59,869 bases of DNA. Source: Hydrolagus affinis. Lineage: Eukaryota. The DNA lies in contig JAAILG010000231.1 of assembly GCA_012026655.1 (NCBI GenBank), positions 62,001 through 121,869 on the forward strand, read 5' to 3'. Both the position numbers and the translations under genes were made by a program. Positions 1,598 to 59,699 of this stretch are shown here, piece after piece (position 1 is the first letter of the stretch; every line of letters starts with the position of its first letter). A model generated the notes under the pieces. The model saw only the letters and a program-made list of their open reading frames with translations. It had not been told where the DNA came from and ran no database searches.

Positions 1598-1711
1598 CTG
1601 CAAGAAAAACAAAAGGTTTATATTTCTTAAGGTTACCTTATAATGGTTTGACTGCGGTGGCCGGAGCGGCGGATCTCAGTGTGAAGATAAGGATGGAGCT
1701 GGGTTACTTAC

Positions 1712-1925: not shown

Positions 1926-2084
1926 GTTATCAGACCCTCGGTGAATTTCTCCAGGGTGGAAAAAGTGACCAGTTACTCGATGGATAACGTGAATACCGAT
2001 TTTTTCATGTGTGAAAAAAAATGTGTTGCGGTATTCTCGCTGTTAGATAATACCGAAATATTAGTGTCTTTTACAGAGAGCACC

Positions 2085-29854: not shown

Positions 29855-30493
29855 AACCAGCGTTCGGGGAGGTAAACCAGCTAGGAGGTGTGTTTGTCAA
29901 TGGCAGACCCTTGCCCAATGCTATCAGACTGCGGATCGTTGAACTGGCTCAGTTGGGGATTCGACCCTGCGACATCAGCAGGCAGTTGCGGGTTTCCCAC
30001 GGCTGCGTCAGTAAGATACTGGCTCGTTACAACGAGACGGGCTCCATCCTACCCGGTGCAATCGGTGGCAGCAAACCCAGAGTGACAACCCCAACGGTGG
30101 TCAAACACATCCGAGGATACAAGCAGAGAGACCCGGGGATTTTTGCCTGGGAGATTCGAGACAGACTCCTAGCCGATGGGGTGTGCGACAAGTATAACGT
30201 GCCCTCGGTCAGTTCCATCAGCAGAATCCTGAGGAACAAGATTGGAAACTTGTCGCAGCAAAATCAGTACGAATCCAGCAAGCACTCGCCACACCCCCCC
30301 CCTCCACAGTCCGCTCTCTCCTACAACCCACTCTACTCCTCCTATCCCAGTCCCATCACAGCCGCAGGAGCTAAAATGCCAACCTCGCCTGTCTTGCCGA
30401 CTCTCTCTGGCCACATGGGAATTCACAGGACCTGGCCTTCATCGCACTCTGTCACCGATATCCTGGGCATCAGAGCTATAGTGGAACAGCAAG
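29855..30493 (+). CDS. PAX9: PAX9 coding exon 2 (paired domain + octapeptide)
   Basis: Acceptor ...TCAG|AACCAGCG. Paired domain [52 protein letters not shown]...SISRILRNK and octapeptide HSVTDILG. Donor G|GTAAGA, phase 1. Confidence 0.98.
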
Positions 30494-32628: not shown

Positions 32629-32768
32629 TTAGTGACAGTTCTTCCTATTCTACTAAAGTGGAAGAATGGAACAACAGTATAAACAGGAGCAATTTCCAGT
32701 CCTCAAACCAGCCTACAGTGAATGGCTTGGACAAGTCCCCACTGGAACAGGAAGTCAAATACACTCAG
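32629..32768 (+). CDS. PAX9: PAX9 coding exon 3 (140 bp; acceptor anomalous)
   Basis: (V)SDSSSYSTKVEEWNNSINRSNFQ...VNGLDKSPLEQEVKYTQ matches PAX9 exon 3, with donor CAG|GTAATT. The 5' boundary is inferred from the frame because no AG precedes it. Confidence 0.8.
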
Positions 32769-35268
32769 GTAATTGTAGCTTTGCCTTTCCTCTCAACCAG
32801 ACAGATTACAGCGTTTACAGAACTCCAAACTGCAAAAATAAACATGCTTCAGCAATTACTGACCCAGATATAATTAGTATTTTAAATTGCCATGACTTTT
32901 TTTTCACATGCTCGGAACCTTTCAATAATTAATCTGCAGAATGGTGGGGATGAAATAAAAGGCGTGGATTTTTGATTAATTTTTTTTAAAAAGCGGTGAC
33001 GGACTAAATATGAAATATTATCAAAGGCAATTATTTAAATTTGCCTGGAAGGAGACTTAGGCAGGGATGCGGATATGGCGTATTTTTTTAAAAAAAAGAC
33101 AAAGTAGTGTGAAAGATTGCACCGAGCAAGAATCGTGCACCAAGCAATCACAACTACAATATTTAAATCAACTCACGACTTTATTCCTGTTTTATTCTGG
33201 GGGATAATAACACCTAACGTACAATGAATGTACTGTCAATAGTAAAGCACATTATGAATACGAAACAGTAAACTGACTCTTTCAAAATCTTAACTAAATT
33301 AGGATCTGATTTTGAAAATAATACCTATTATTCACCTATAATCCGATATAATACCAGGACGTAATTATGTTTTTTAAAAAGTGAATGGAGTAATTATCTC
33401 AGATTTAAGTCAATAAACACAAACGCAAAGCGATCTTTTCTGTGATTTACTGCATCTCAAACAACCGCGAGTTTCATGTTGGAAAGTTTGCAACATAAAA
33501 CGATATTTATCTATTCGAGCGACCGGTTTACAATTTAAATAAATGGTCTGAATTCGAAGTTTCTAGATTTAAAAAAACGCATTTGTAGATTATATGATTG
33601 TTCGAGAAGTCATTGAAATTAAATAGAAATTAACCAGATACATTGCAATCCCTGAAAAGTTCAAGATAGCGCGAAAATATAAGGGAGCAAATACGCACAT
33701 AGTTGAACTCCATATCAAAGAATATTTTTTTAAGCATGAATCATTGACAAATATGACTCTCCCACTCCTCTCCCGATCACTTACCATTCCGAAAATTGGC
33801 ATTTATTGATATGAACAATGACAATTGCATAATCTGATATAAATGGCCAGTATTTCATAGAACAAAAAGCGACGGCTATAGAGAAAACTCTTAGAAGCGA
33901 TAGGTAATCCAGCAAAACCTCAATGACAGAAGAAGAAAAATTCAGGACTGTTCGCTCAGCTGTCGTGATAAAGAACCGGTCCGCAGTGAACTTGGACAAA
34001 AGATCATTTCATACCAATTTAAAAACCAGTCAGAACACACGGCTTGTAGTGTTTTGTGAACCGGCATAATTGTGATTGACTAGCAGTATTTTTTAAAGCT
34101 GTTCCTGGTGCCAATATTTTTAGGCAAAAAAAACTGAAACATATATTTATGTAGTTCGACTCGTGTTATCTATAATTAAAACAACTAGAAAAAAGGACCG
34201 CATATTACAAAGCTAATATCAGGCTTTCAAATGTATTCAGGATTCAAGAAATAGATGGATTATTGATGAAATATAACATTTCACAAGAGCGTGTCATTAA
34301 TGACCAGTTTGAAAGAGACAATATTGTGTGGGTAATTTTGAATGGATGTGACCTTCGGTATTTTATTCATCTGTTATTATTTGCAACTGTGCTCGAATGC
34401 AGCAAATTATGCACCGACATCTATCATACACTTAGACTCGAATTCAGTAGAAACCAGCAACAACTAATGTGAGGTTTCGCGTGTTTGCTCCATACTGATC
34501 TGGGAGTATTAATTCTGGGTCTGTGGTGGGGCTCGCTCTGCACAGTGCCCTTTATTTGTCATTTTGTTTTGGGGGATGATGCCATTGCATTCACACACAT
34601 TGGCATCAATGCCAGCGGCGGCGGCTGTTTGGCAACTGCACTAAAATAACATGCATCACAACTTAACATCGTATTACAATGCACTGATGGAAACATATTT
34701 CTGATGATGTGGTTGATGTTGAGGGGGTTGATTTTTTTCACTGATCCCTTCACATATTTTCTATAGAAACTACGGCAAATACTTAAAGCAGTGACAGTCA
34801 AGGACGGTTCTTTTTAGTACTAATTGCATAGTATTAAGGTGTATAACTTCCCCCCCGAGGGTATGTATGCGAAGCCCTCATATTAGTTTGACTGTAAAAA
34901 GATCAAGTCTGATTTGAACATTTACAATTGACCTGCCATTTTTTAAAAAAACATTGAAAATGTCAATTGTGTGGAATTCATCTACACACAAATAACAGTT
35001 GCAAGATAATACACACATCTTGTTTTATATATAAATCGTTCGAACTTCCCTACTTCATTTTAACTCCCTTTGACAATTAAGTTTTGCATCAAACATCTGT
35101 GTTATTAATTGAATTCATATACTATATTTGTGTGGATAATCTAGTCCTGGCGTTGGGTTGTTTCACACTTACCTGCATATAAACGATTGAATTATATTTT
35201 CGATTGAGAATGACTCGAAAAAAAACACATATCAAATCAAATGTGATGATCGATCTTTATTTTTGCAG

Positions 35269-35526
35269 GCTCCGAACGGTCTGCCTGCAGCGAGCAGCTT
35301 TGTCTCAGCCTCGACCATGGCTCCCTACCCTCCTCCACCCACACAAGTGTCGCCCTACATGTCCTACAGTGCGGCCGCTTCCAGTTACATGGCAAGTCAC
35401 GGCTGGCAGCATGCGGGGGGCAGCACACTCTCAGCCCACAGCTGCGACCTCCCTACGCCACTGCCGTTTAAAAGTATTCAAGCAACCAGAGAAGGTAGCC
35501 ACTCTGTTGCAGCCTCCGCCTTGTAG
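35269..35526 (+). CDS. PAX9: PAX9 coding exon 4
   Basis: Acceptor TTTTTGCAG|. Reads [21 protein letters not shown]...AFK-like [20 protein letters not shown], the PAX9 C-terminus. Confidence 0.95.
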
Positions 35527-37699
35527 TGCACACACACACACACGCGGTTATATATGTCTTGATGTCAACCATGCATCAGTAACAGCACAGACTTTGGTAC
35601 CAAACCTTTAAGAGCACAGACCAGTTAAAGAACTACTGGTTACTTACTTGGCATTTTTTCCGAACTTTATTTTGCTTGCTTTTATTTAATGGACAATTGG
35701 AATTCGCTCCCCCTTTTGTATCACATAGTTGGTAACCCTCGCAAGTCACCCATGGTTTCATATAATGTAATTGGTACTTCATGTATAAAAAGGTCGAGGA
35801 TCAAATTGTACCCGTGTTATATCCAAAGAAAGATGACAACTCAAGGAGTTTAACCATGTGACTCCCAGCCAAGTTTGAATCCCAGAGCCACTTGTCCCCC
35901 TGGGTTTAGTTTGCAGAGTTATGTAACTGTCTGTCAGAGATAAATGGATTTCCAAAACATCACGAGCTTTTACCTCTAACTAGAAGTGGGAACATTTCAA
36001 AATTGTCCATCCGCTTTCCCTCTCCCCTCTCCAAGACTGAGGCAGCCTTGATAAGAGAGCCAATGAGGGTTGAGCTCAATAAATCCCATCATCCAGGTTA
36101 AGGAAAGAAAGCTCATGACAGTATGTGGCCTATCAATTGGAGAAAAATCACATCAGGCACAAGGTATAAAAGTTAAATCAAGGAAAGCAGAATAAAGTTT
36201 AAGTACCAGGGGCCAGAACTTGAACAGTTCATGCTACCAACAATTGATACAGAGACAATATTTACAACCTATCAATGATGCTAATTAATCACTGGTTAAA
36301 CTAGTTATAACAAACGATTCAACAGCAACAACTTTCATTTATCTCAAGCCCTTCATTTGAGTAGCATCATTATAAATAGTTGCTCCTTAATTAAGATTCA
36401 AGTTGTGGTTTTTCCCTTCCAGTGATACTCAAAGGGAAGCATATTTCAATTGTTTTGCCAACACTAGTAGAGCATAATGATTATGTTATTTAGGCAGATT
36501 ATTTTTTTCCCTTTCGAATCGTTTAAGTGGCTATATATATTAATACAAAAAGTGGTTTACAGGATGCTACATTGTTTCTTGAAATGCAATGAGGGCCAAA
36601 TGCAAAACAAAAAGACCACTATAAACTTTAGTGCAATTCTAAGCAATTCTATTGAAAACCTGGTCCCAGTTAATTCCTACTTAAAATTCAGAAAATGACA
36701 CAGCTGTACTTATATTTCAATAATTTCTTCTGTTAAAGCAATAAATATAAGTAACTGGAATTAGAGAGTGAGACAGAATATTGTAATTTAAATTTTTGGT
36801 GAAGACATAATTGATGGGGGAAAAGTAATTATGGATTAAAGATTTTCTTCTATGTAAATACAAATAAATTGACAAAATTTATTTTTGTATCATTGTGTAA
36901 GCTTTCACTCTTTGACTGCTGCCACTGGCTTTCTGCCAAGCATATTCTTTTCATTGGTGGCGGGCTGGCCAGATCCATATATGGACATTTCTTTATTATT
37001 TTATGTGCATACAGTAAGTGTTTTATGAAGGAAATTTTCTTTCTTCGGCACAGGACACAAAGGCAAACAACTCTACAAGTAAACTACAGGATCCTATGCA
37101 ACCTCACAGGGTCATGATACAAGCCCCAAACACAGCTAGGGTATAAAGTTAGCTTTTCGAAGATCCTGAACAAAATGTCTTTAAGAAGTTGATCAGAAGG
37201 TTCAAACTTAATGTGAAACCTATGTATGGACTCATACAATGGACTCGTAACATAACCACTGTGAAACACAACTTCTCCTCTAGTTATTGGCTGTAGCATT
37301 GACCCAACAATTCAGGTGACACATCTGTTCACTCATTTTCTGATATTTTCAAGAATACTTCTGGTTGAAATGAATGTACATCAGTCCGCTGTGAAGTTTA
37401 CATCTATGTAAATAATCTTTTTATTTGTAGGTAAAATGGTGGTGGTAAAAAGTATGAATCTAAATTTTATTTAATGGTAATTAGTATTGTATGTAGTTCA
37501 AAACATTCAGTGAACCAGACAGCAGCTGGGCAGTCACACAAAAAGCTGCACACCATGTAAAAAGCTATAAAAAATCTCTGTTGTTCTATATTGAAACCAT
37601 AACCTTTTTTGTATTTTTCTTAGTATGCATTAACTCTGTCCCAGTTTCCCACAGCAAAGTCTTCCATTGAACCTGCTCTTTGTTGAAGACCAGGATGGA

Positions 37700-38065: not shown

Positions 38066-38127
38066 TCAAAAGTTCTCATGAAGCCAGGCAAGTGAATATT
38101 CATAAACCAACAGCATAACTGCACCTC
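38066..38127 (-). CDS. SLC25A21: SLC25A21 (mitochondrial 2-oxodicarboxylate carrier) last coding exon
   Basis: Pyrimidine tract plus TAG|, then GGAVMLLVYEYSLAWLHENF*. Confidence 0.92.
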
Positions 38128-38261
38128 CTAGAGATAGAGATAGAGAGCAGAAATGAGACAAGAGAACATATCACTTAATAGTGAATTTTAAAAAGTACCT
38201 GAAACTGTTCACAACTAAATACTAATATTTGATTATATATAAATACTAGGATTGCACTTAC

Positions 38262-38314
38262 CTGGCCCAAGTCGCATGATTTTAGGCACCAAGCCTTTAT
38301 ACAATGCAAAGAAC
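38262..38314 (-). CDS. SLC25A21: SLC25A21 exon (53 bp)
   Basis: AG|...FFALYKGLVPKIMRLGP...|GTAAGT; phases match both neighbours. Confidence 0.93.
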
Positions 38315-38832
38315 CTAGAAATTGGAAATGTATGAATTAGTTAACATCGTTGACAATTATGTCCAAATGTCTGCTGGGAATTTCCGCTAAATAATACTCT
38401 GCCTTCTGCAGTGCAGGCTTTGCTCCCTTTGAACTGCAGGGTGTTATAGCATTTTTGCAGTTAATTGTGTTTTTTATATTGTTTCTAAAATTGATTTAAT
38501 TAAAACAACATTAATACCATGACTGAAATATGATGACCGTCATGCTCCTGGGTATTTTTTTTTAGAAACTTACCTTAATTGCATTACAATTGGACATTTA
38601 ATAGGTGAACAATGCATTAAGTTAAGATTTTGACTTGCTAATTGTTAAACACACTTTATTTCAAGAGCAACAAAACCAGAGAGTAATTACATTTACCAAC
38701 AACATGGAATGGAATTCTTAATACTAGTTTAAATTCTGCTGTGCAAATCACCAAAGCATTTACTAGGCAGTGATTGTATTAAAATAACAATGTTAAAATA
38801 ACCCAAATTTTAAATTGAAAAGGGGTTCTTAC

Positions 38833-39014
38833 CCTTCTTCTCTGTAGATAGTGTTCATGGTGCTGAAACATGTCCTATATTTAATCTCTCCTAGAATAGG
38901 CTGAGGCCCTTGGATTCTGCTTTTAGCCACATCGAAAGGTATGTTAACACAAGAGGCAATTGTTCCTGACAGTAGTCCTATTCCAACTTTCCTCAAGAAC
39001 TCCAAGGTTGGGTC
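38833..39014 (-). CDS. SLC25A21: SLC25A21 exon (182 bp)
   Basis: DPTLEFLRKVGIGLLSGTIASCVNIPFDVAKSRIQG...REEG, with carrier signature PxDxxKxR and AG/GT ends. Confidence 0.95.
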
Positions 39015-40193
39015 CTGAAGAGAAAACACACACATTAAATTTGTTTTAAGGGAAAAAAATGAAACATAATTAGTTGAAAATCTATATGGCAACACTGTCT
39101 TGTTGCTCGACCTAAACACATTAAGATTTCTCATCCTGGAGTTCACTTTCTTGACAATCACATTGCCTGTGTTTTTACACATGTTCCAAATTGCTGAAGC
39201 ACACATTTCCTCACACAGGATTTATAAACAAAGTTCATAAAAAAAAGAGACTTGCATGGCATATGGGGATGATTTGTATAATTAGGCCTTACAATGTACT
39301 TAGTATTACTGTATCAAAACAGAAGAAATCCAAGCAACCATATTAGCTAATTGGCCAGAATACTTTACAAATGACAGCAACTTCCACCATGAAATCTACC
39401 AAAATACTGATTTGTACATGAGATCACCATATGTTAAAAAAGTTTGAATCCCAACGTTCTATGTTTTTGTTCTCTTTCCTGCATGCTTTTCTCTTCAGAT
39501 TTTCTTTCATGTTCAAGTTATCCAGTCGATCAAGAAGTAGAAGTTTCCTGTTATTAACAATCCACATTAGTTCAATTATAGCAGTGACTGAAGTCTCTTG
39601 TATTTTTGAAAAACAGCAGCAACTAATTTAATTGACTGAAGGATTTTTAAAGTACACTACTGCTTAAAAAGTAATGCTTCAGTTTCAGACTTTCTTGCAG
39701 CCAGAATATTTGTGTCCTGACTTCGATGTGAATGTGGACGCTTCAGTGATGTTTTATTATAATATATTCAAACCATTGTGATTCTTTTACATTCTGTGTT
39801 AGTAATTATTGATGCAGACCCTTGATCTCCCACATTTTTATAGACAATTAAATCTAATGGTGTGTAATGATTTACACTTGCAAAACATTGCACTACAATG
39901 TAATGCTATTTATATGTAACTTCTACAGCATCCAATTAAAAAACAGAATGATTGTTACACAAAAGCATGGCAGATGGTCAAACAATACTTTCTTCCTAAA
40001 GCCCAATTACTGGAGTGTTGTAACAGATGTATTGGCTTAGTTTCGATGAAAGTTTTGCATGAGGAAATGAGATGTATTAGTGTAAAAACAACATGAAAGT
40101 CCACTGCTTACTCATACACTAATGTTGCTTGGTTTCTGATCATTCTCCTGCTGCGTATCTGATATTGGCCCACAATTCAGGTGAAATAATTAC

Positions 40194-40358
40194 CTCCTTT
40201 GCAGGAATAATATTTTTCACATTGAAGTAAAATCCAAAGTAGATCATGTTGAATATGCCGTGGCGACCCAATGTTGCTGTTAGTCCCTTGTTGAGGCCTT
40301 GCAGTCCAAAGCCCTGGGAGTTGACAATTTCTCGTGCGTATGCAAATGCGGATGGTTG
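40194..40358 (-). CDS. SLC25A21: SLC25A21 exon (165 bp)
   Basis: QPSAFAYAREIVNSQGFGLQGLNKGLTATLGRHGIFNMIYFGFYFNVKNIIPAKE, AG/GT ends. Confidence 0.95.
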
Positions 40359-40649
40359 CTGTATCAAAACAAATGTCATACTGAAGGTTTTTTTCCTCCC
40401 CACCAAAAGGAAAATAAAAATAAATACAACATTTGAAATCCAACTGCTTTCAGGTCTTTATGTGCCTTAAGAAAGGAAACACAAAGTTTGTACAAAGGTT
40501 GAATAATTGACACAAATCATGACCTTGTAAAACAAAACTAAATGTTTTTTGGTTATGTTGAAACTTTTATTTATTCACCAGCATTTTACTTTGAAACCTA
40601 ATCAGTGTTGTTTACTAAACTCAAATGAAACATTGCCAAGGGTTTCCTG

Positions 40650-41125
40650 ATTATGGGCAAGTTCAGAGCCATATAGAGCAGGTTCAAAGTCAAAAACATG
40701 TGGCTGTTTTAGCTGATCTTAGTCCTAACATAGAAGAGCTAATACAATTGGCCTCCAGTTGAGGTGGTAAATGGGATTAGATTAGATGGTTTATGCAGAG
40801 ATAAACACTAGTGCAGATGAGATGGGCCAAATGGCCTCTTTCTGTCCTGTAACATTCTATGATTGCTATTTCAGTGACCTCTACTGGAAGACAAACATCA
40901 AGACTGGTCTGGGACTAGCTATGATGCTTTCTATCCATGATTAAAGACCTACCCACCTCACACATGAGAAATGAAGGTCATGATTTTAAGCAATAGTGTA
41001 CTTTAAAATCCTTCAGTCAAAAATGTCCATGGTCAAATTGCTGGAGGTGGCTGGAGCCTTTAGAACCATTTCCCTGCATGAGTCATTATTTTAAGAGAGG
41101 AGAAATTAGGAGGAGGAAATTCTGA
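40650..41125 (+). mobile_element. old LF-SINE-like element interrupted by a CR1 3' end (about 40785-40863)
   Basis: Blocks TAGCTGATCT, TACAATTGGCCTC, GCTATTTCAGTGACCTCTACTGGAA, CTCACACATGAGAAATG and GCATGAGTCA recall the LF-SINE consensus in order (from memory). The insert ends GATGGGCCAAATGGCCTC...ATTCTATGATT. Confidence 0.6.
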
Positions 41126-42096
41126 CTTGAAAAAAGTTATTTCACTTCCTATTTTTCCCTTTCCCATTGTGGCCTCAACCTCGCAGACCAGATGGTCAGG
41201 ACTGTACTGTAGATTCTTCTTCAACAGCAGCTGTCAGATCAGCTCCATGTTGCTGGAGGGCAATAATATGCAAAGAAGTACAGTGTGAGCCTGACTGGGC
41301 ACAAGGGAGGATGGCGGCAAAAGTGACTGAGTAGAAACAACTGTCTAAGAGGAAAATAGACAAAATGGAAAAGAGGGAAATAGACAAAATGGGAAGAGGC
41401 ATTCAGCTACATGACAGCGGAAAAGAACAACAATGGCCTAAGAGGAAGTGCCTGTGTCCCATCCCGCTAATGCCAGTTAGCAGAGATACTCTGGAACACC
41501 CTTCCCCTATCCCTCCGTCTTTCCCCTTCCTTCTCCAACGTCACTTTCCACTTCGGTTACCTCCTCCCACCCACTCCGGCTCGGCATCATGCCCTGCCAT
41601 TTTCATGCACTCTGGGACGTTACCCTGTGTGAGGGGCACCATATAAATACAAGCTGTTTTCTGTAATAAGCAGACAAGCAATAATCTCTTCTGTGCTTTA
41701 ACTATTTTAGTTTTTGACAATACTGTGCTCTGGAAGAAAACTAAGGAAGGCTTTATGCAGAATTCCCTATCTCCAGTTCCCTTCTGCAATCATCGATTGG
41801 GGGTAGGGGATAAGGGGTAAGTTCTTCCTATTGTTATAGTTAATTAATTCTCTCACTTGGATATATAGATAGAACAGTTCTGACTAGAATCTTTCAGCAC
41901 GGGTTATTTTAATGAGCTGATTTGTTTAAAAGGTTCTCTTTCAAAATACTGTACTGTTGAATCCATGGCCTCAGCCAAATGAACCCTTCATATATCCGGT
42001 TGGAAACCAAGGCAGAGGTGAAGGATGCGTTCAAATTACATGCTGTTCAGAGGGACAACATGTTTTACTTGTCAATAAACCAATGAAAATAATAGA

Positions 42097-42460
42097 AATA
42101 ATAATAATAATCCTTGCATTTGATATAGCGCTATATCACGTCTTTGAGACCTTTCAAAGAGCTTCACAGAATTTACTATAAAGTGAATTCACTGTATATT
42201 TTGTGGGCAAAATGCAGTAGTCAATTGTGCACAGCAGTGTCCCACAAACAGTCGTGCATTGAGTGACCAAATTTTAAAAAAAAGAAGTTATTACCCCGGA
42301 AAAGCGATCTGCCGTTCAAGTAACAACTGGGTTCCTATACTGTTAAGTAAACAGAGGTGTATTGAGTAAGGAAACTTGGCCACGTTTTGTCCTGCCGGGA
42401 ATCAAACCCAGGTCTCTCGCTTGTGAGGCAAGTGCCCTAACCAATGAGCTACAGGACTCC
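42097..42460 (-). mobile_element. full-length tRNA-derived SINE
   Basis: Head GGAGTCCTGTAGCTCATTGGTTAG...GGTTTGATTCCC (A/B boxes), family body and (ATT)n tail. Confidence 0.85.
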
Positions 42461-42809
42461 ACAACTAATGATATTAGTTATCTAAGGATGTGGACAATTA
42501 TGTTCGCAATACGTTTCTCTCGCTCAGAACTGCCACTGCACGTAGCTGTATATATGTGGAGATCATATCAGTTTTAACTATTTCAGTGCCAGCCTTGTTG
42601 CACTAAAGATAACCATCATTTAAAAAAGCTTGTATTTTTGGGTTTCCCATTTAGTTGACCAAAATATGGTATAGAATTTACAATTTATTTCATGGAGCAA
42701 GTAAATATGATCTGCTTCCTAAATATAAATCACCTCTCAATCTGACTTTGTGGATTCAAGCGTCATGTCGGGATTTGTAAGTCACCGTCTAAATTGACAC
42801 TTCAATATA

Positions 42810-43130
42810 GTGTTGAATTGTTGGAGGATGTGTCCTTCAGATAAGATGTTAAACCGAGTTCCCATCTCCCTGTTCAGGTCGAAGTTATAGATCCCATGGC
42901 ACAACTCAAAAAGAAAAAGGGAAATTCTTCCAGTGTGCTTTTATTCACTTGAATAAAAATTGGCCTTCGCTTCATGGCTGTTTGTGGGATACGTTGTAAA
43001 CAAATTGGCTGTTGCGTTCATCTACAAATATGTCACTACATTTCACAGAAAAATCCAGTGAAGCACTTTAAGATGTCTTGGCAATGTGAAGGGTGCTGTA
43101 TCAAATACTGTACCAAGATTGTTATTATTA
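42810..43130 (+). mobile_element. Deu-domain SINE (SacSINE1/AmnSINE-like)
   Basis: GATAAGATGTTAAACCGAG...TTCAGGT...GATCCCATGGCAC (Deu domain), then GCTGTTTGTGGGA...AAATTGGCTG and an L2-like tail. Confidence 0.75.
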
Positions 43131-43935
43131 TAAAATGGGGTCTGAAGTAAAGGGGAATGAGTTCATTGGATTTCTTAATAACAACAACTGCAAAATTACA
43201 TTTGTATAACGTGTCTTTCACTTCGGGAGGATGCCCCAAGGCACTGGAATAAGATCATGAGTCATGCAGATGATTAGCCCTTCTACCTGTTGGTATGGCA
43301 CGATGACTTGTGGGACACCCCACTATACTGTAATCTACTTCTTGGAGCAGAGTTCACTTGATTCCATGATTGCTCAACTGAATTTCTTATTAAGGAATGA
43401 AACCCCACATATTAGACTGTATGGATTTTTTTTATTTCCCAGAATACGAAAGCTCAGTGTTGGCAAGTAACAGCCTACACCGTACAAGAGGAACCTTTGT
43501 AAACAGTAAAATCTGCATCGGTCGTATCAATCAGGAACATAACATTTAATATGACTTACATGAAGTCTGAGTTATTTGTACAAGTCGGATTTTTTACGAG
43601 CAACACATGACAGTAAACAAGTACCTCATTTTCCATGCTTGTTTAAACAGACTATGCGGTACTTCAGCACTGCAGCCAATGTGTTAGCATGCGGTGATGG
43701 GTTCAAGACTTGTTTCCCATGCTTGCTTTAAGCAGAACAGTGCGAATGTGTATTTCAATGCAGCCGGTAAGTGTCATAGTGACATTACAAGTTAGGAGAT
43801 GATTTGCATTGGATTTGGGATTATTTGGGATCACAAAATCATTACAATTTAACCAGTTTTCCAATTTATAAAATATGATGAGTGCAAACAAATCAGAAGG
43901 TTTTTTTTAACTGAAGGGGACTTGGGTGCGTGTGT

Positions 43936-44280
43936 GGAGTCCTGTAGCTTAGTGGTTAGAGCTTGGGTTTGTTTCCCTGCAGGATGAAATGTTGGGCAAG
44001 TTTCCTTATTTCACATGCCTCTGTTTACCTAGCGGTAAGTAGGAACTTAGTTGTTGGCAATTGGCGGATCACTTTTCCGGTGTAATAATTCCTTCAAAAA
44101 ATTATAATAATAATTTGGCCACTCAATCCTTGATTGTTTGTGGACCACGGCTGTGCACAATTGGCTGCTGTATTTAGCCCACAAAAAATACAGTAAAATC
44201 ACGTTAACAGTGTATTCTGTGAATTGCTTTGAGAGACGTCTCAAAGGCCCTCTATCAAATGCAAGAATTATTATTATTAT
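43936..44280 (+). mobile_element. tRNA-derived SINE
   Basis: Same family as 42097-42460 in the opposite orientation, with (ATT)n tail. Confidence 0.85.
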
Positions 44281-44392
44281 GTATGACTCAGGCGATAATA
44301 TGATTTATAGAAATAACTCAAGTTTTACTGTACAAAATTAAATTGAGCAGCAGAATTATAATATCAAATAAAAATAGTTCTATGATACTGAC

Positions 44393-44500
44393 CTCAGAAA
44401 ATGCATTCCGCTGGGCCTGTAAACTGACCTTAACCACTTCGAAAGGGTTTACAACAATTGCTTCTGTGAGTCCAGATCCCAAACCAGAAATCATAAAAAT
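44393..44500 (-). CDS. SLC25A21: SLC25A21 exon (108 bp)
   Basis: IFMISGLGSGLTEAIVVNPFEVVKVSLQAQRNAFSE, with carrier signature PxExxK, acceptor TTTTTAG| and donor |GTCAGT. Confidence 0.95.
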
Positions 44501-44949
44501 CTAAAAAAAATTCAACTAACATTCAATTCAAAGATGTAGCAGAGTAACATCAGCTGTAAAAGTGGCACTACTTTCTGGAGACACTGAATTGCAGATTAGG
44601 GGCAAGTAGCATAGCTGCTGCACCTTGTTTAGCAGAAATAAAATCATGTTTAAATTTTAATAAAAATTTTAACAAATAAAATTGGTCACTCACTCAATTG
44701 CTGTTTGTGGGACATTGCTGTACGGAACTTGCAACCGTGTTTTACCCACAGAATACACAGTCACCAGACTTTACAGGACATGCTGAGAAGTACATTGAAA
44801 CATCTTGGCGACATGATAAGAAGCTTTATTACATGCAACAATTATTATTTTAGCAGCGTGGAGTGAAATGTTGAAAAAAATGCAGTCTTCCATTTTGGAG
44901 ACCTGAGGGAAGCATGTAAAAAAAATTATGGGCTTAAGGCTGTTAAATA

Positions 44950-45686
44950 CAGTAAAAGCCCGTTTATCCGGCACCCGCGGGACCTGGCCAATGCCGGTTA
45001 AAGCGCCTGCTGGATATTCGGGCAGTCCGCAGCCGAAAACCCAGAACAAAAAAAGTTAAGTTCTTTTAACACACACCATACATACCAGACTAAATAATAA
45101 CAGATAATAACATAATATTGTATTGGTACTTATTGTTAAAACTACTCTCTTGTGCTTCTCACCTTTACTGATTAAGGTTTACACGTCCAGAGATTCTTTT
45201 TTAAATGGAGGACGCCAAGCGGGTGAAAAAAACGGCAGCACGATTTTAAAGTCTTGCGACTTTACTTGCGGCAAGCCTATAGCCCTAGACTCTATTAGCA
45301 GCAAACCAAAATACTACACCTGCATGACAATGTGGGTTATCGGCTAGCGTTATCAGCTTGCCGCTAGTATGGCTTTAAAATCGCGCTCTGTTTTTTTCAC
45401 CTGCTTGGTGTGCTCCATTTTAAAAAGAATCGCTGGACTATAAACCTCAACCGCAGCATCATGGCTTCAAGCACAGCATCTACTAGTAAAAGTGAGAAGC
45501 GCAAAAGAGTAGTTTTAACAATAAGTACGAATACAATATTGTTATGTTATTATTTATGTATTTACAAATGCTCCACTGCTATTGTTCCGGATAAGTTCCG
45601 GTTTATCGAATGGGGACTTTTTGGGGGGCGTGCCGGTTATATGGAAGTGCCGGTTCATCGAGTCATGGATAAACGGGCTTCTACTG
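44950..45686. mobile_element. non-autonomous Tigger/pogo-type DNA transposon (MITE)
   Basis: TIRs CAGTAAAAGCCCGTTTATCC and GGATAAACGGGCTTCTACTG, TA duplications at 44948-49 and 45687-88, and a transposase N-terminal remnant MASS...KRKRVVLTI at 45461-45523. Confidence 0.9.
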
Positions 45687-46411
45687 TACATTGTAAAACA
45701 AATCATGTAGATGAGCAGGAGGAGGGAATATGGTCCATTGAAGTCAGCAATAGAACAGCCTCATGGGCTTGCACTTGGTTTAAGGAGTATTCATGATAAA
45801 CATGATGCATCGTAAACAGCTGGTGATAAAATTTATTCCACCTTGCAACATTTTCTGTAATGTGAATGCTCTTTTTTTTCCACAAATTATTAACAACAAA
45901 AGTAACAAAATACACATTGAACAGACTCAAAATCCATGAGATAATTGTCACCATGGAATCAAACTGTCTGGTGGAATGCTTCAGTTGATAATGTACACAG
46001 GAATCTGGTGTCTGACTACCAATGTCTAAATAGAAATTTAATATCTTAATCTCATTTAACTGCAGTTTTATTAGTCAATGAGTGGACAGAGGATGCCATT
46101 GAAACTAAGATGCCTGCACTTTTGTTCAATACAAAAACATTTTATGTGTAAAACAGTGTTGGTAAATTTATCTCGCCATTTTGGTTTCATAAGAGGCATC
46201 CTAAAAAGATCACCAGCCATAAATACCTGAAAATATCTCACCCTTCAAAATTGCTGTTCTTGTCTCTTCTGATTTGTGTTTCTAATTTATTATGTGGAAC
46301 TGATGGCTTTAAGAAAAAATATATTTGCTCTAAAGAGCTGATCAGTGTTTCTTGAGCAAGGCAGCATTGTAGGAAATGAGTGTCGATGAATCTTCAATTA
46401 AATCAATTACT

Positions 46412-46710
46412 TAATAATAATAATCCTTGCATTTGATGTTACGCTTTTTACATCTTCTAGACATCTCAAAGCGCTTCACAAATTGTATTGTAAAATGAAT
46501 TGACTGTACATTTGTGGGCAAAATGCAGCAGTCAATTGTGCACAGCTGTGTCCCACAAACAGCCGTGGATTGAAGTGACCAAATTATTATTGTTTTTTTT
46601 CTTGAGGGATTATTATCAGGAGTGTTGAATAAGGAAACTTGCCAAAGATTCCCTGCCAGGAATCGAACCCGAGTCTCTCACTTGCGAGACGAATGCTCTA
46701 ACTACTGATA
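46412..46710 (-). mobile_element. tRNA-derived SINE, internally shortened
   Basis: B-box GGTTCGATTCC on -, family body and tail. Confidence 0.85.
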
Positions 46711-47237
46711 CAAAATGCTTTTCGGATCATGGCACAGACAATTCAATAGTGATTCGCAAAAGCTCAGCAGTGGAGATTTTGGTTAATCAACTAATTTTGT
46801 GTGAACCTTTAAGCCCTGATTCCTTTGGCATTGAGCATTAATTGAACAACGGATCAGATAACAAAAAGTACTGTAGTATAAAATGAAGTTTCCTTGTTTC
46901 TGCTGTGTGCTGTTGACTTATTTTTTAGTATGTTCTCCAGGCAAGAGACAGTTAAAGATTGTAGCACTTCAGATTTCCGTGGTCGAATAAACTGGTGGAT
47001 TGGGTTCAATATGTTGGATGACCTCCCTCTTCTTGTTTTCCAATGTTTCTTAATACAGTACTGTACAGAGCAATCGGATTCAGTGAATTTCCTTTTTGTC
47101 CCCAAGAAATGCAGATTGCTTGCTACGAGAGAGGCTTTAAATATACAAATGTTCCACTATGGATTCGGGTTGTTCTGTCTGAAGCGATTGAAATTGGCTT
47201 TAATGTCTTTCAATCTGCTTCACAGAATTACGTAGAC

Positions 47238-47335
47238 TGATAGAGCACAGAACTGGCCATTCAGCCCAACTGGTCCGTGACGGTGTTTATATTCACACAA
47301 GCCTGCACCCCTCCTATTCCCTGCTCTCATACCCC
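47238..47335 (-). mobile_element. CR1 LINE 3' terminus
   Basis: GCACAGAACTGGCCATTCAGCCCAAC is the reverse complement of the CR1 terminal GGGCTGAATGGCC motif. Confidence 0.65.
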
Positions 47336-48168
47336 TGATATTTAAATTTGTCGGTGATTCCAATGTGGTCTGCCAGGTTGGACATACAGTCACTATTCTT
47401 GACAGTAATTATCTTTGAAATACAATGTGATTTTGCAAAGTAATAAGCCATTACAAAATGTAGGCTCTTGCTTTCTGCTCAGAAAGATTTTCTTTTTAAA
47501 TGCGATACAACTCAATATTTTACAGGTAACCTTTAAAAATCTTCAACTTATCCTTCTCTTAGACCATCCACATTAAGATGGGTCAAAACATGGGCACTCA
47601 AAGTACCTGTAGAACCCTTCCCTGAAAGTCTGTACACAAGTCGAGTGACCCAGTAGTAAGCAGATTTTTGCAAGAGCAGGTTTTAGCCTAGTGCCAGTAA
47701 CTGTAGCTGCCAAGCAGGTTTTTGCATGGAGCTCATCCTAATCTAACTCCCCATAGTTCCTAAATACACACTCACAGGTAAACAGGAAGACGAAAGCTGG
47801 AATTCAAGAAACAAAGACACTAATCCTTGCACTGAGTGACAGCTCATGAACAAACTTACAGCGAAAACCTTTTTTTTATTCGGGTATTCAAACGTAATAA
47901 TATACAGAACTTTGACCGACTGTAATGTGACTTTACAAGGAGAAATGTCTTTCGATTGAAGTCTTTGAAGCTATAAAGTATATTTAACTATTACTAACAA
48001 CAGATTTTTAAATGAAACCATGTGTTGCGTCAATGGATTTATTGTTGGAATATGATAACAAATTGTTCACATTTGTATCAACATCTTGAAGAAAGTGTCT
48101 TGCGTCACCACAACCAGTTGAAAGGCTGGGTGCATTGAAGGAGGGTGCATTGCAGATTTTGTACTTAC

Positions 48169-48228
48169 CAGATTAGATGGCAAAGAAGTATAATTCAAAA
48201 TCTTCTTATATTGTTCAAAGGTGAAAAA
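48169..48228 (-). CDS. SLC25A21: SLC25A21 exon (60 bp)
   Basis: TTTTTCAG|FFTFEQYKKILNYTSLPSNL|GTAAGT. Confidence 0.93.
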
Positions 48229-50929
48229 CTGAAAAACAAACCATAAGTACGCAGTCATCAATTGCAGAAAATTTACAGAGAATTTACGGTTTGTCTGCTT
48301 TTATAGCAGGAAAGCACTACTGTGATCATTGATTCTACAAGTGTGAGCAGAAACTGAACAACAAAGAGAAGTAAATATGTTCAATAACATTCAGAACATT
48401 AACAGAGTGTACTGCAGACTATATTTCAAAACATTGCACAATATCTTTCCTTCTCAATATAAGTCAGAAGTACACATGGGATGTAAAATAAAGGCTGCGT
48501 TTTTCTGATGAGCACACCAATAAAAAACATCAATGATACTTTTTTTTTGATCAGCTAAAAGTCTGAAACCTGTATAAATGCATCACCATGCTTCAGAGTA
48601 TCCAAACCAAACTTCTATGCATCCCGCCTACATATGGAAATTGGAATGGAATGTTCACCATCTCTCTTGAGGGATGTACCTTGCTTACCTAATTCCGGAG
48701 AGTATTAAGTGCAGGTTGGTAAGAGCCAAGCCTTTGAAACTCCAGAGTGTGTGTTTGTATATACAGTGTTGTTGGTTTGCGGGCAGTTCAGATCCACAAG
48801 CACTAAGAAATACATGGTAAAGTCTTGAGATTTTAGCTTCAGAACAGGTAGCTACCACCCCATAAGTTATCAGGTCGCTGTCTGGGATTCACTCCAACAA
48901 GGTAAGTCAATGGCCACATTCCAATCAAAATCATCCAACAATACAAACCTTTCTGCAAGCAACATTCAGAGCTGCAAGATATCAAATAAACTTGTCAAAT
49001 CAGAAGAAGCCATAGCCTCACTTTGAATCTTCTAGAAGACTTTTATATCTTCTAGGCCACTTTTTTTTTATTAGCATTACTGCTGCAAGTAGTGTAAACC
49101 ACTCACTAGGGAAAGGCAAGTGAAGCGATTTTAGCTGGTTAGACTCCAGGTATACCTCAACGTACATTTTGGGTACCCAAACATTGGCTTTTGCCAACCA
49201 TCGCCTAATATTCTCTGGATGCAGGTGGGGAGAGTGCACATTCCATTCCAATAAACAACTGTAGAATTTCCATTCTCTGCTTGGAACTCTCAATTTGGTT
49301 TGAACACTATTAAGCGTGACAATGAGTTTCTGCGTTTGTCATACAAGTGACTGAACAAAACAAGGGAAGGGATGTTCGGGAGTTGGGTTCTGAATTGTTA
49401 TTATCAGCCTTTGAACTACCCCATTCCTTCAGGCTGTCTCACCCTCTTTTCGAGTCCTGTTACTGGCATGAACGACAGTGGAGAAGCACAGATTGGTTGC
49501 ATTTACAACTACCAAATGAAAATTCAGTATAACATTTGGCAGTAACATGCATAATACTGTTTAGGCAAATCGATAGTCACACTAAAAAACAATGATGTTT
49601 CCAACATCAGTTTAATCAGTGGCCCTCTGCTGATCTGTGAGCGGTTGCTAGGTCCTGACAATACATTGCTTCTCTTCTCTTGATAGTTGTGACAACTGAG
49701 TGAAAAGCACACCGGCGCAGGAAGGAATATATCATGTTATCAACAAAAGAGGCTTATGTCTCTTTAACACCATGGAGGTGGGTTCCAATACAAACAAAAC
49801 TGCAAGGTGAAAATGTGTCGAAATGATCTTAAGATTGTTGTTTGTCAGAAAAAGCAAAAACAGAAATAATATAAGCCACGCTTGCAATTCAAGCATTGGC
49901 ATTGACTGATGAAATAGTTGGCACGACAGAAAGAATTTTGAAGCCCATTCAGTTAGTAAGAAAAATATATAATAGTTGCCTAAGTGGAATGTTTCCAGAG
50001 TTTATGAGCAGGCAAGAACATTGTGCCCTGCCACAAAATATGTTGGAAAAATTGTCAGGAAAAAAATAAATCAGTTCAAAGAATGTGATTATTCTTAGGT
50101 CATGCTGGTTAAAAACATACCAAAGGGTTAGACCAGCATTCAGTCTACAAAATTAGAATAATCTTATACAGCTGCCATTGTAAATCCCTTCTTCCTAAAA
50201 ATGTAACCAATTTTATTGCTGATGAAATACAATTGGTCATTCACTTCATGGCTGTTTGTGGGATAACTGGTACTCAAATTGGCTGCTGCATTAGCCTACA
50301 AAGTATACTGCACTTCACCGAAAAAAGTGCTTTGAGACATCCTCCTAATGTCTTCTTACATTGTAAATGTAAGTTAGACTATTTATCGTAAATGTAAGTT
50401 AGACCCTATAAAGGGTCGATATGAAAGGACAAATGGCGAGGTGGCGAATTATTAAATGTATAACAGTATATTTTATGGAGGAAGAAGAATCTGCGAAGGT
50501 TATGGAGGAATGGCATCAAAAGTAGACTAGGTTATGGTTAAGAAAATGTTGAAAGCTGAAAATGTTAAAATCAGAAGAGTGACGTGCAGAAAAAACTGCA
50601 CAAAATTGGGCATTGCAGTCTACAGTTTTGTTATCAGGAGAAAGGAATCTAAATGTTAACAATGACTAACTTTGAGGAAATGCACAAGGCACTTTTGTAA
50701 ATCCTCCAAGAGTAAACTAAATATGTAACACATTTGGAGATTTGTGCCCAATTTCTTAAATGGTAGAAAGATTTTCTAAGAAACCACACAGGAAGGTATA
50801 ATGACAAAATATGTAGTACAGGAGTTGGTTTTGTTTTGTATTTTCTGACGAGGTAATTTGTCGCATACAATATTTATAACAGCTAAATAAGCAAAAGCAA
50901 GTGTTGTCACAATCAGATTAATAATAATA

Positions 50930-51150
50930 ATAAAAATGCAAAATACTGCAGATGCTGGAAATCTGAAACAAAAACAGTACTCGCTGGGAACACTCAGCAG
51001 GTCAAGCAGCATCTATGGCGAAAGGAAAAGAGAGTCAATGTTTCGGGTCAGAACTGACGAAGGATCGTGAACCTAAAACATTGACTCACTTTTCGTTTTT
51101 CCATAGATGCTACCTGACCTGTTGAGTGTTCCCAGCGATTTCTTTTTTTG
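50930..51150. mobile_element. palindromic Penelope-like terminal element with decayed hammerhead motif
   Basis: Inverted arms of about 70 bp (50981-51049 and about 51070-51138), CTGACGA...AAAACATTGAC at 51054-51085, and a possible TSD TTAATAATAATA/TTAATGATAATA. Confidence 0.75.
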
Positions 51151-51425
51151 TTAATGATAATAGTTGCATTTGATATACTGCTTTATCATGTCGTTCAGAT
51201 GTCTCAAAGTGCTTCAAGGAATATACTATAAACTGAATCGATTGTGCATTTGGGGGTCAAACGCAGCAGCCAATTGGGGCGAAATGCAGCAGCCAACTGC
51301 GGGCAAAACTCAGCAGCCAGTTGCCACAAACAGTTGTAGATTGAGTGACCAATTTATCATTTATTTATTATTGAAATAATTATTTCCCCCAGAAAGCAAT
51401 CTGCCAATCAACTATCATTTGGTGC
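51151..51425 (-). mobile_element. SINE 3' portion
   Basis: TTGCATTTGATATAC...CCACAAACAG...GAGTGACCAA...GAAAGCAATCTGCC family blocks. Confidence 0.75.
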
Positions 51426-51454
51426 AGTTTACAGATGTGAAATACTGCACTTAC

Positions 51455-51521
51455 CTTCACTGCTCTTTTTGGTGTTTCAGCAAGGATGGGAGGAAAGATC
51501 CCTTTGTAATAGCCAAAAAAT
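51455..51521 (-). CDS. SLC25A21: SLC25A21 exon (67 bp), most 5' exon found in the window
   Basis: TAG|(G)FFGYYKGIFPPILAETPKRAVK|GTAAGT. Upstream exons were not found and presumably lie beyond 59869. Confidence 0.93.
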
Positions 51522-54818: not shown

Positions 54819-56825
54819 TTGTGGAGCACATGGAAACTTTTAGTGGAAGAGACTAACAATTTTTGACACTGAAAATAAGGTGAACGATCTGTGGAAAATA
54901 AACAATTACAAGCTGAAGTCTTTTTCCTCCCAGTGTTCTTGACAGATATGAAAGCTTACAATAATTTTCTTTGAAGTTACCTTAACTTATAACTGATGAA
55001 TTTTGGATTCTAATTTACAAATGCAATTACTGACAACCCAAACAGTGAATTGCCAAATGGAATGAGGTTGAGGAGCAATTTGAGAGCCAGAACCGAGGAG
55101 ACAAGCTTTGCCAAATTGTTTCTCTTCGAGTGATCAACTGTTCACCACATACATGTACATACAGCAAAGGTATAGAAAATCTTCACGTGTGAGTTATGGT
55201 AATGGTACCCCGTATTTATGAACATGACTTTGAGCAACTTGAATAATCACCTACAAAATGCAGAACCACTGCACTTTTCACCAGATGCTGCACTTTGAGA
55301 CGTATAATAACATTAAACATTGCATTTGATATAACGCATTATCACATCGCCGAGACACCTCAAAGCATTTCACAGAATATACTGTAAAGTGAATTAACTA
55401 TAAATTTTGTGGAACAGAATATTTTCCCATTGTGAAAATCACTAGATCAAATGCAAAGGGGGCCTTGTTTAAATCTTGAAATGTTGTGAACCTTAAAACT
55501 GAAGAAAGTAAAAGAAAGTACTTTTACATAAAATGTAAAAGAACCCTCCTCCACATCACTCAAGGTAAGATTCTGTTACGCTTATATCTTGTTACTGGGT
55601 TGCTTTGCAGAAGAAAAATAGACCGTTTGTTACAATCAAAGGTTAAAAATTTAGGTCTGTGTCCTGATCAATTTATATAAAATGGAGTCTTTATAAGTGA
55701 AGTAATTGGTAAGATTTTAACTGAGAGGCCAATGAAATTCATAGGAAATGTGAATAAAAGAGTTGAGAGCATTACTGCAGTGTCAAAAGAAGTAGATCAG
55801 GATAAAAGCAGCCTGCTTTGAAATATTTACTCCTGCCACACCTAGGAGTGTAAAAGAAAGAAAGTTCTTAAAGAACATTTTTCCACCAATGTATATATGA
55901 AGCTTTCATTGTCCTGAAATATGAAATGAGGAGCGTTCACACAAAAGGAAACAAATCGCATCATAGCTCATTGTGGGAACTGGGGTGTGTGTCTATTTGA
56001 GCACTTGTTACTTTTCAGGTTTTTTGATGCAGTTGTGTTCGTTGACAATCTGCAAGTTCAGGTATTTTGCAACACTGTCCAATTCCATTATAATAATAAC
56101 AATCCTTGCATTTTATGTAGCGCCTTATCATGTCTTCGAGACACTTCAAAGCCCTCACAGAATATTCTGTACAGTGAATTATCCTCCATTCTTGCAAATG
56201 GATATTTTAAGAATCTGAACTCAAAGGAAGTGGATCCTGGTTTTGAAATAATGTTAAAAAAAATTATGTTATATACAGTACTTCAACAGGGTGAAACCTA
56301 TACTCCACCTAGATCAGGAATGGCAAACAAAGTGGAATTGTGATCCAAAGATACAGATGAAACTCAAAGCAGTTTAGTGGGAAGTTACAGTGATGTATTA
56401 CCAGACTACTATCCTATCACTAAATGATTTAGTGAATGTTTAAAAGGAACTTGTGGCTAGAAATTGCAGTTCACAACAAGTTACAAATAGTCCTTACTCA
56501 AATAAGAATGATCAGCACGATCACTTCATGAAGGTTTTGGCTCACGTTTCCATTGAATAGTGTAAACTTTTATGGTCATGTTATATGCTGAGCTACTGTC
56601 ATGAACTTTGAGAGAATAGAATGAACCAAAGCTGTGGTATCACTCGTCCGCCTCTTATTCACTGTGAAGTGATTATAACACTCATAAAATAATACTTGAA
56701 TGATAAGTGAGTGCCAAATATTATTTAATAGATTCTTGGCCAGGAAATCAGAAGAAACACCCATTTCTTTTCGAACAGTGTCATGGTATCTTTAATGTCC
56801 ACCTGAACAGGCAAATAGTACCGTA

Positions 56826-56969
56826 ACAAAAACAAAAGTTGCTGGGGAAACTCAGCAGGTCAAACAGCATCCATGGAGAAAGGAAAAAGAGTCAACGTTT
56901 CGGGTCTACAATCCTTCGTCAGGACAGATTGTTTCAGATTCCCAGCAACTGTAGTATTTTGTGTTTTGT
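56826..56969 (-). mobile_element. Penelope-like short insertion with 13-bp target-site duplication
   Basis: TSD AAATAGTACCGTA (56813-56825) and AAACAGTACCGTA (56970-56982). Homologous to 50930-51150, with the terminal 40 bp or so inverted. Confidence 0.8.
56891..56925 (-). ncRNA. minimal type-I hammerhead ribozyme motif (PLE-associated variant)
   Basis: Minus strand reads GUC-CUGACGA-A-GGAUUGUAGACCC-GAAAC-GUU-GAC: both core boxes, stem I GUC/GAC, an imperfect stem II and a palindromic ACGU stem III. Confidence 0.6.
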
Positions 56970-59699
56970 AAACAGTACCGTACTTCGGTTTAACATCTCA
57001 TCCGAAGGAAATAGAAACGTTATGGGATTTCTGCAACGGTTTTGAATTGATGAAGATGAGGCTATTTCTAAGGGAGATGTGAATTCCCGGGCTTTAACCT
57101 GGGCTTAATGTTTTTTATTTGTTTAATTTAAAAAAATTATTATAAATATTATAATATAGTATATAAATATTATTATCTGTATCACCCAGCATTAAATTGG
57201 GATTAAGGCTTAATTCTGTTTTTTGTTTCATTGATGATTTTTTAAGAGTAATTTTCTGTTAGCAAAGCCAAAAATGAAATCCAATGTTAAGTCAAACAAA
57301 TAAAGACATTTGTGGAGAACGGGAATCAAAATTTTATTGCCAATTAGTCTAATATATATATATCTATAAATACATAGATGAATTGAATCTCTGCTGGTTA
57401 TAGAATTTCTCATTCATAAAGTTTGACAATCTCATTATGCTTTACTTCTACGTCTTGATACTTAGCAGGTGGGTTAATCATGCTGAGGTATTTGGTTTGT
57501 GCACCTCTACTTAATGCTTGCAAACTTTTGTGTCAAGAGACCTATGCAATTCTGTTTATTCATTGTCCCAAACAAGATCAACAAGCTCAATTATGCTTTC
57601 CTTCTTTCCTATCTAAACTGGCTAAGCAATCAAATTGCAGTGAATTAGTCTCCCAACTGATATTCTCTAATAAATATAATATAAGCCTTACATTTGATTC
57701 TGCAGTTAAAGAATGCTATTAGAAATCATCATGTTTTTGACTCCATGGTCAAATGAATTAACATAGTGGTTTGTACCAATAGATTTGTTGGGACCAGAAA
57801 TGGAAGATGGGTGTTATAGATTGTTCCATTTTGATCTTCCTCAGGGATGTGACTTTATCATTAAAAATGATGATCAAAGCAAAAATCATACTACTCAGCA
57901 CAAAAATATTACAATACAAAATTGTATTTGTATAGCACCTTTTATGTTGGGAGGACATCCCAAGGAGCTGGGAAACAGTTACTGAAAACCATGGCCATCA
58001 GTCTGAGATGAAACAATATTTCTAGTATTCAGCACAAATGGCAATGCAACTTCCCCAAAGATGTTTTACTTTACAAGAATTTGTTAGCTGCTATACATCG
58101 CAGTCACAAGGTTCGTCTGGCACAGAAGGGCAATGACCCATGAATCCATTCCCTTTTTTTTCAATGGATAGAATTGCCATTCTTCTAATAACTCAGAAGT
58201 ATGTTACTTATCATTTCCTAGTCACATTTCATACAGTAAAAACAGAATATTGTCTTACGTAAGTTATGGAGAAAGGAAAACACAAGTGATAAAGGTAAAT
58301 ATCACTGTGTGCCTTCAGCACACCCCTTCCCCCCTCAAAAAAATCTTTAGTAGTATTCAACTGCTCAGGTGCTATTGAAGTTATCTAAGGCTGAAATGAG
58401 ATTCATTGTGAATGGATTAATATTGTGGATGCAGACATAAGAAAAGCCTTACTGATAGAGAGAATGATAAAAGATTCCTTTGACATGGAAAAATAGATAA
58501 AATCCTGTATCTCTTCATCAATCGTCTCCTGTTATAATCTGGGTGAATTGTAAAAAACAAATCCCACTAACCCTGCTGTAAACAAAGAATGCTATGCTTA
58601 ACATTACGGTCATCACAAGAGCAACAGCAAGAGGCTGAAGTTTTGTAACATCATTGCTTAATGCTTAATGAGCAGAGGGGAAATTGAATAAGAATCCAGC
58701 TGCAATAGAGTGAAAAGCCAGTAATGAGTTTAACTGAAGGTGCTGTTTGCCCCAGTGTACATTTCAAACATAAAGAATCACATAATTGAGAGATTTACTA
58801 TAACCAATTTAAATACCAATAGATTTTCCGCATCTGTCTGTGCCCAATGCCCATTACCATTAACTCTCCATTATGTGGAGAATGACCTATTTAGTGTCTA
58901 TGCTATCTCTCTGGATTTGATTGCCAGTATAGGTTCAAAAGAGTCATTCCCCTCAACAGCAGTTTTTTTTGTTAGAAACTGCAATTGTTTTAAAAACATT
59001 TTTAGTGGCTTCCATTCATCACCTGCAAGCAACAAAGCAGTAACTTGATATATGACAAATATTACAAGCTGAATGGCTGCTGTGCATTATTGATGAGGCC
59101 CTGCTTGCTCTTGATAGGAAACTGTCAATGAAGGATTGCTGTGCAAACAGAGGTGTGAGAAACTTGCACGCAATAGCCTGTCACCACATGTGTGAATGGA
59201 GGCATTTCCAGGGGACATTAGCTGTTATCTTAAGGTACAAGCCACTAACAGTGATATTAATGCACAACAAAAAACTCATGATACTTTGGTATGCATGATC
59301 ACTTGATGGTGGTTTCCCCTAAGTGTACCTCATTCTCGTTGTGGATCACCTGAGGCCAAGCTGTCCACACACTTTCCTTCAGAAACCACGAGGCAGAAAA
59401 AATCTAACAACCCAAGCAGTAAAGTGTAACAAAACAATCATTATCTCATTTAGCAAGCAGCTAAACCATTACAGTCGGTCGAGTTCACTGAGTGAACTGA
59501 ATTTCATCCTAAACAATAGCTGATTAGTTCTCCTGCCACAGGAGCAATTTTTATTTCATATGGTCAACCCTAGCTGATTTTTTGGAATTGTTAGATAAGT
59601 AAAGGATGTGTCTCTTCTGCATTCTCCTGCTCTTTATTTCTCATGTGACCAGCAAGTCACCCAACTGATGCTTTCACTTGTCTACACTGATAGATCAGC

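Follow-up and report, generated by a model that had tools for sequence, protein, structure and literature searches.

A 144-bp insert interrupts an older repeat in the 59,869-nucleotide stretch of Hydrolagus affinis DNA analysed here (the window), and its minus strand reads as a small hammerhead ribozyme. What kind of element does this insert represent, and does its ribozyme act on the RNA in which it lies? The initial annotation proposed a distinct non-autonomous, ribozyme-bearing mobile family, one copy of which might self-cleave an intron of SLC25A21. The analysis favours another reading (probability about 0.88): the insert is a copy, truncated and in part inverted, of the terminal repeat, hammerhead included, of a protein-coding Penelope-like element (PLE) with reverse transcriptase (RT) and GIY-YIG endonuclease, likely dead and not cutting the host intron.

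Anatomy of the insert and its surroundings

Coordinates and letters bear out a 144-bp insert enclosed by a 13-bp target-site duplication (TSD) with one mismatch (table 1). The A at 56825 is also compatible with the element end, so the TSD may be 12 bp plus one nucleotide of microhomology. Two arms of opposite orientation make up the insert. The direct arm (56925–56825) is 93% identical over 101 nt to an endonuclease-linked copy by BLAST. In native copies, the tail lies directly 3' of the pre-tail end; here it is inverted. By sequence comparison, the insert is the terminal repeat of an RT and GIY-YIG (Neptune-like) PLE, reduced to a 100-nt arm and an inverted 41-nt tail. A reading as a MITE was rejected: the imperfect inverted-repeat look of the ends stems only from the similarity of tail and pre-tail as direct repeats.

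Table 1. Features of the insert and its surroundings, in window coordinates.
Feature	Position	Strand	Remarks
Left target-site duplication	56813..56825	.	13 bp; last base possibly microhomology
Direct arm of the PLE terminal repeat	56826..56925	-	starts 3 nt ahead of the CUGA box and runs to the pre-tail end
Minimal type I hammerhead motif	56891..56925	-	predicted cut 56894/56893; stem II broken by a G>A change at 56912
Junction between arms	56926..56928	.	3 nt, unlike either arm; gap between two BLAST matches
Inverted arm	56929..56969	+	PLE 'tail' with a few bases of the pre-tail; 41 nt at 97.6% identity
Right target-site duplication	56970..56982	.	
Older host repeat, SINE-like, split by the insert	56705..57009	+	uninterrupted copies align to the reconstructed empty site
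Nearest downstream SLC25A21 coding exon	51455..51517	-	tblastn with P0001/P0005
Another insertion of this PLE group, more diverged	50933..51152	.	two inverted arms; 81–85% identity

The annotation had the insert splitting a Deu-SINE. The splitting of an older repeat stands, as the flanks rejoined across the insert align at 68–81% to uninterrupted copies of the host repeat; the name Deu-SINE is tentative, based on a likeness to the Deu domain. Compared with uninterrupted copies, the insertion site holds five extra bases (56983–56987), possibly a small earlier tandem duplication.

The motif was further described as sense to the SLC25A21 pre-mRNA. This gene, whose best homologue is that of Callorhinchus (97%), as would fit a chimaera-like host, does have its exons on the minus strand, between 51517 and 38069. 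A search of the window for the next exon upstream found none before the end of the contig at 59869, so the intronic, sense-strand position of the insert is one that we infer. Exons in the window follow vertebrate order: 1056–2042 (minus), which we take to be an NK2-type homeobox gene, 29809–35611 (plus), presumably a paired-box (PAX9-like) gene, and 38069–51517 (minus), SLC25A21; the first two names are given from the translations. Rfam matches tRNAs at 42387–42458 (minus) and 11078–11136 (plus), both probably the heads of tRNA-derived SINEs.

The second PLE insertion in the window is older than the 144-bp insert and is built alike, except that its inverted arm is longer. Its minus-strand arm (51048–50933) has the tail, and its plus-strand arm (51054–51152) is without it. 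The plus-strand arm contains a degenerate hammerhead.

The Penelope-like family behind the insert

Relatives of the insert are abundant. At least 40 were found at 86–93% identity (40 scored of 1940 candidates). A 32-nt pattern of the motif has 903 exact matches in the genome and its reversed control none, while a looser core pattern has 3316 against 63 in the control; the motif is thus not a chance occurrence. A 25-nt anchor downstream of the motif matches 3579 times. The locus itself is ordinary, one among thousands of decaying stubs.

Following the sequence upstream from the motif gave the link to open reading frames (ORFs). Copies with additional upstream sequence have in common a pyrimidine-rich 3' UTR, which runs to the end of an endonuclease frame. 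In 28 of 30 loci fetched with the endonuclease C-terminus, the endonuclease is followed on the same strand by the hammerhead arm, and the other two loci end first. A repeat of ~138 nt, comprising hammerhead, pre-tail and tail, follows the endonuclease ORF and in long copies also directly precedes the ORF, as in 8 of 30 loci fetched with the N-terminal part of the ORF (about five independent events). Its position, after the endonuclease and also before the ORF, identifies this repeat as pLTR and tail, the terminal repeat of an EN+ PLE. In two long copies that are 90.6% alike across 2190 bp, the RT and GIY-YIG frames are broken and include a DKG motif as well as a Cys-rich linker. PF01541 matches L112 (E=1.9e-5), and L111 and L112 align at 42–60% over residues 106–797 of an RVT_1-bearing protein. 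Compared directly with Pfam, the three RT fragments gave no RT match. None of the copies seen has an intact full-length ORF, and autonomy rests on broken copies. The search for linked GIY-YIG and RT frames was nonetheless successful, and the proposed association of the motif with PLEs holds at family level, through RT and C-terminal GIY-YIG frames, this copy being without an ORF. A Cys-rich linker of the kind present in the L112 translation is the criterion of the Neptune clade in the available text of PMC8557442, which suggests a Neptune-like PLE, assigned by linker motif and not by a tree.

PF01541 itself has 24 matches in the genome, of which 20 loci were fetched. This repeat is absent from all 20, and the matches were set aside as other families. 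Elsewhere, L042, L044 and L046 represent a second GIY-YIG family, with a different hammerhead-like motif of longer stem II near the endonuclease.

Several variants of the element were observed along the way. Six loci (L244, L250, L255, L257, L260 and L261) are an internally deleted derivative, with the leader repeat, ~1 kb of the 5' part of the ORF and then the repeat again from −4 (positions are relative to the CUGA box). Three of these, L250, L257 and L261, have a common upstream flank, so the derivative was multiplied within a larger unit. In L235, L247, L250 and L252, the sequence just 3' of the tail resembles a splice acceptor, being a pyrimidine tract with a terminal AG a few bases ahead of the likely start codon. 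Introns are known from PLE leaders. One short motif within another abundant repeat is the landing site of several insertions (L003, L011, L023, L029, L006 and L012), which hints at a preferred target.

The hammerhead of this copy

On the minus strand, the letters of the hammerhead are as first described, with both boxes, an extra A, a 3-bp stem I and ACGU in place of stem III. The 5' side of stem I (56925–56923) is followed by CUGACGA (56922–56916), the extra A (56915), stem II (56914–56902, with an A-C mismatch at 56912/56904), GAAA (56901–56898) and the ACGU palindrome (56898–56895), and cleavage is predicted between 56894 and 56893. A regular expression for the core boxes matches nothing else on either strand of the window. 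Rfam, which is uninformative for minimal variants, gave no hammerhead match at the gathering score or at E<=10.

The identification as a PLE-type minimal hammerhead (min-HHR) agrees with the published metazoan examples, as far as the consulted part of PMC4209133 describes them. Shared features are the CUGANGA and GAAA boxes with a UH cleavage site, the extra nucleotide between 9 and 10.1, the G10.1-C11.1 pair, the palindromic 15.2–16.2 without stem III and, in the family, a 4-bp stem I. The published motif class likewise occurs mostly in single truncated copies and also in opposite-strand pairs, 100–700 bp apart. Stem II has 5 bp here and 7–8 bp in the Schistosoma mansoni families of the same source. 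Cartilaginous fish are not named in that part of the paper, and the stem II lesion is particular to this copy.

Could this copy be an active intronic ribozyme that cuts the SLC25A21 pre-mRNA? The core is intact at all 11 positions, as is the palindrome ACGU, and the motif lies on the same strand as the gene. The stems are less well preserved: four of the five pairs of stem II and three of the four of stem I are present, against full sets of five and four in the family. Family stem II is GGGUU/GACCC, and 24 of 27 copies have G where this copy has A (56912). The stem II hairpin is predicted at −4.2 kcal/mol in a family copy and is not predicted to fold here. In a 240 nt context, the pair probabilities of stems I and II round to 0 in this copy; a family copy in its native context reaches about 0.55 and 0.23. 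The fold constrained to a hammerhead is predicted at −1.3 kcal/mol here, against −6.6 and −8.4 in family copies. For the insert, the predicted fold is instead end to end (z=−2.76), owing to the similarity of tail and pre-tail as direct repeats, and the ends of the insert would thereby form a competing hairpin. These folding predictions ignore tertiary contacts and protein help. Since the A-C mismatch departs from the G-C pair of the family and the fold is predicted to be absent in context, self-cleavage of intronic RNA by this copy appears unlikely.

Nor is a usable partner close by on the same strand. The nearest same-strand arm is 5.8 kb away, beyond an exon, has no CUGA box and has a broken palindrome. 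In the sections of PMC4209133 that were available, min-HHR monomers of PLEs do not cleave and dimers cleave weakly. The suggestion that this copy self-cleaves the intron is accordingly not supported, and an active intronic ribozyme is considered highly improbable.

Conservation gives no sign of selection on the motif. Comparison of core and flanks was set beforehand as the refuting check, and the core proved no better conserved. In 27 copies recruited with the endonuclease, mismatches number 11/297 in the core and 107/2511 in the flanks (p=0.76). In 39 arms recruited with the anchor (39 of 45 were kept; six gapped arms were dropped), the core is worse than the flanks (33/429 against 28/936) because of CpG decay (p=0.17 without CpG), and the whole motif is retained in 10 of the 39. 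Excess core conservation was thus rejected, which counts against an active ribozyme in the host intron. As even decay is expected of dead copies, the result speaks against host selection and not against a ribozyme in the parent element. The proposed covariation of stems I and II did not emerge either: the 39 arms have no two-sided compensatory change at eight pairs, a comparison of little power within a single young family, and subfamilies differ by one-sided C-G/U-G swaps only. Two polyA runs of one sample from another organism, mapped to a family copy, show no pile-up of molecule starts or ends; such libraries show RNA ends poorly, and nothing on cleavage is concluded from them.

Copy ends and the candidate start of the element RNA

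The architecture of the family was assessed from the first 100 of the 3579 anchor matches, taken irrespective of their 5' ends. The longest contigs supplied these 100 arms, which make up 84 units and so are only partly independent; the exact 25-nt anchor favours younger copies. The 84 units comprise 46 inverted pairs and 38 single units. A TSD, mostly of 13–16 bp with one mismatch allowed, is present in 62 of the 79 units with both ends inside the reference. The 3' ends form two groups, at about +99 and about +134 from the CUGA box, and in all 16 loci with the anchor in both arms, the two arms end at different sites, one at the tail and one at the pre-tail site.

This plan matches published insertions of EN+ PLEs, for which the parts of PMC8557442 and PMC3846280 at hand describe an inverted, 5'-truncated pLTR copy, a one-sided tail of 30–40 bp and a TSD. 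The insert in the window is an extreme short form without ORF sequence, and the fixed 5' edge at stem I seen in the sampled family is not mentioned in those parts. The kind of feature is already known and the insert adds a member to it, though the supplements of bioRxiv 10.64898/2026.07.22.740005 may include the chondrichthyan family.

Are the short copies a family in their own right? They would then have an internal promoter for their own transcription and undergo retrotransposition in trans, as a SINE-like family dependent on the PLE. Many solo units of ~100–140 nt do have near-fixed ends, with TSDs in 20 of 33 single units; the promoter of Drosophila virilis Penelope lies inside the transcribed pLTR region, according to the portion of PMC2377424 available; and polyA RNA of a relative contains the repeat in abundance. 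The depth profile of this RNA is, however, the same as that of the contigs of run X2. Among the 30 closest relatives, the junctions between arms differ in all 21 copies that could be parsed, so each stub was built at insertion and not copied from a master stub. One diagnostic variant is as common in short arms (14/61) as in long arms (4/20; p=1.0), and the sampled loci contain no retrozyme-like tandem arrays. A SINE-like family is hence improbable, and the distinct non-autonomous family of the annotation gives way to truncated copies of the coding element. The non-LTR retrozymes described in the accessible text of bioRxiv 10.64898/2026.07.22.740005 resemble the insert in being non-coding and pLTR-related with a type I hammerhead. 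They consist of head-to-tail tandem units, each with its hammerhead, whereas the insert is a monomer with an inverted tail. Retrozyme identity is not supported, given the single motif in the window and the single or inverted form of the sampled units.

For truncated PLE copies, the position of the 5' ends becomes informative. Ends at −5 to +7 account for 61 of the 100 arms, with a sharp outer edge at −5; a further 21 run further upstream and 18 stop further downstream. Expressed as stops among the 82 arms that reach +7, 61 fall within −5 to +7 where neighbouring rates predict 8%, and the per-base stop rate is about 0.10 in this zone against 0.004–0.007 to either side. At +27 to +31, the expected start of a cleavage product, only one of the 100 arms begins. 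A peak at the cut site was accordingly rejected (1 of the 91 arms reaching it). The concentration at −5 to +7 and the near-absence at the cut site suggest run-off copying of an uncleaved leader RNA that starts at the ribozyme. The sequence around −4 fits a Pol II initiator consensus.

The proposed mechanism would run as follows. (i) The element protein would nick both DNA strands about 13–15 bp apart. (ii) Reverse transcription would be primed at two internal sites, one per strand. (iii) The template would be uncleaved RNA, since copies retain sequence 5' of the cut site. (iv) When priming occurs on the 5' leader copy, the cDNA would likely run off the RNA 5' end at hammerhead stem I. (v) The two cDNAs would be joined head to head, yielding the 100-nt arm and inverted tail of this copy. 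Priming at two internal sites has been reported in vitro for the PLE of the green anole, Poseidon_Ac (PAc; Frangieh et al. 2024, PMC11167929, seen in part), in which two RT start sites flank the tail, cleavage is dispensable and the hammerhead cleaves only with protein. Both systems have two 3' ends that bound the tail, an apparently uncleaved RNA template and AT-rich ends. They differ in that the PAc ORF starts inside stem II, whereas the ATG frame here begins about 35 nt after the tail, and in clade, by linker motif. For inverted junctions, self-priming on an antisense template is favoured in the excerpted text of PMC3846280.

Might the pile-up instead be an RT stop at a folded or protein-bound hammerhead on a longer RNA? 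The inward spread of ends over the ribozyme, from −5 to +13, and the 21 arms that read through further upstream are what such a block could produce. A block met from the 3' side should, however, stop RT at about +33, and just 7 of the 100 arms end at +21 to +45. The read-through arms are explicable by priming on the 3' repeat. Leader copies before the ORF (8 loci, about five events) start at −3, +38, +53, +56 and +84 and none extends further upstream; the −3 start is that of four loci with a common internal deletion, likely one event. An RT stop is thus a possible but rather unlikely explanation. Somewhat better than even odds are given to an element RNA that starts at the first bases of stem I, with most copies being strong-stop-like run-off products primed on the uncleaved 5' leader. 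This RNA start is one that we infer from DNA ends. A literature search, with subscription papers outside its range, found no published statement of a fixed 5' edge.

The statistics of the family, more than the locus, bear on an open question, namely the role of the PLE hammerhead and the origin of inverted, one-tailed insertions. Copy ends avoid the cut site and pile up at the 5' edge of the ribozyme, in agreement with the uncleaved template seen in vitro. The 5'-end pile-up yields a sharp prediction of the RNA start and is the only part worth pursuing. If the prediction is true, the ribozyme would mark the transcript start and would not make the template ends, and thousands of stubs would constitute a base-resolution record of PLE priming and termination.
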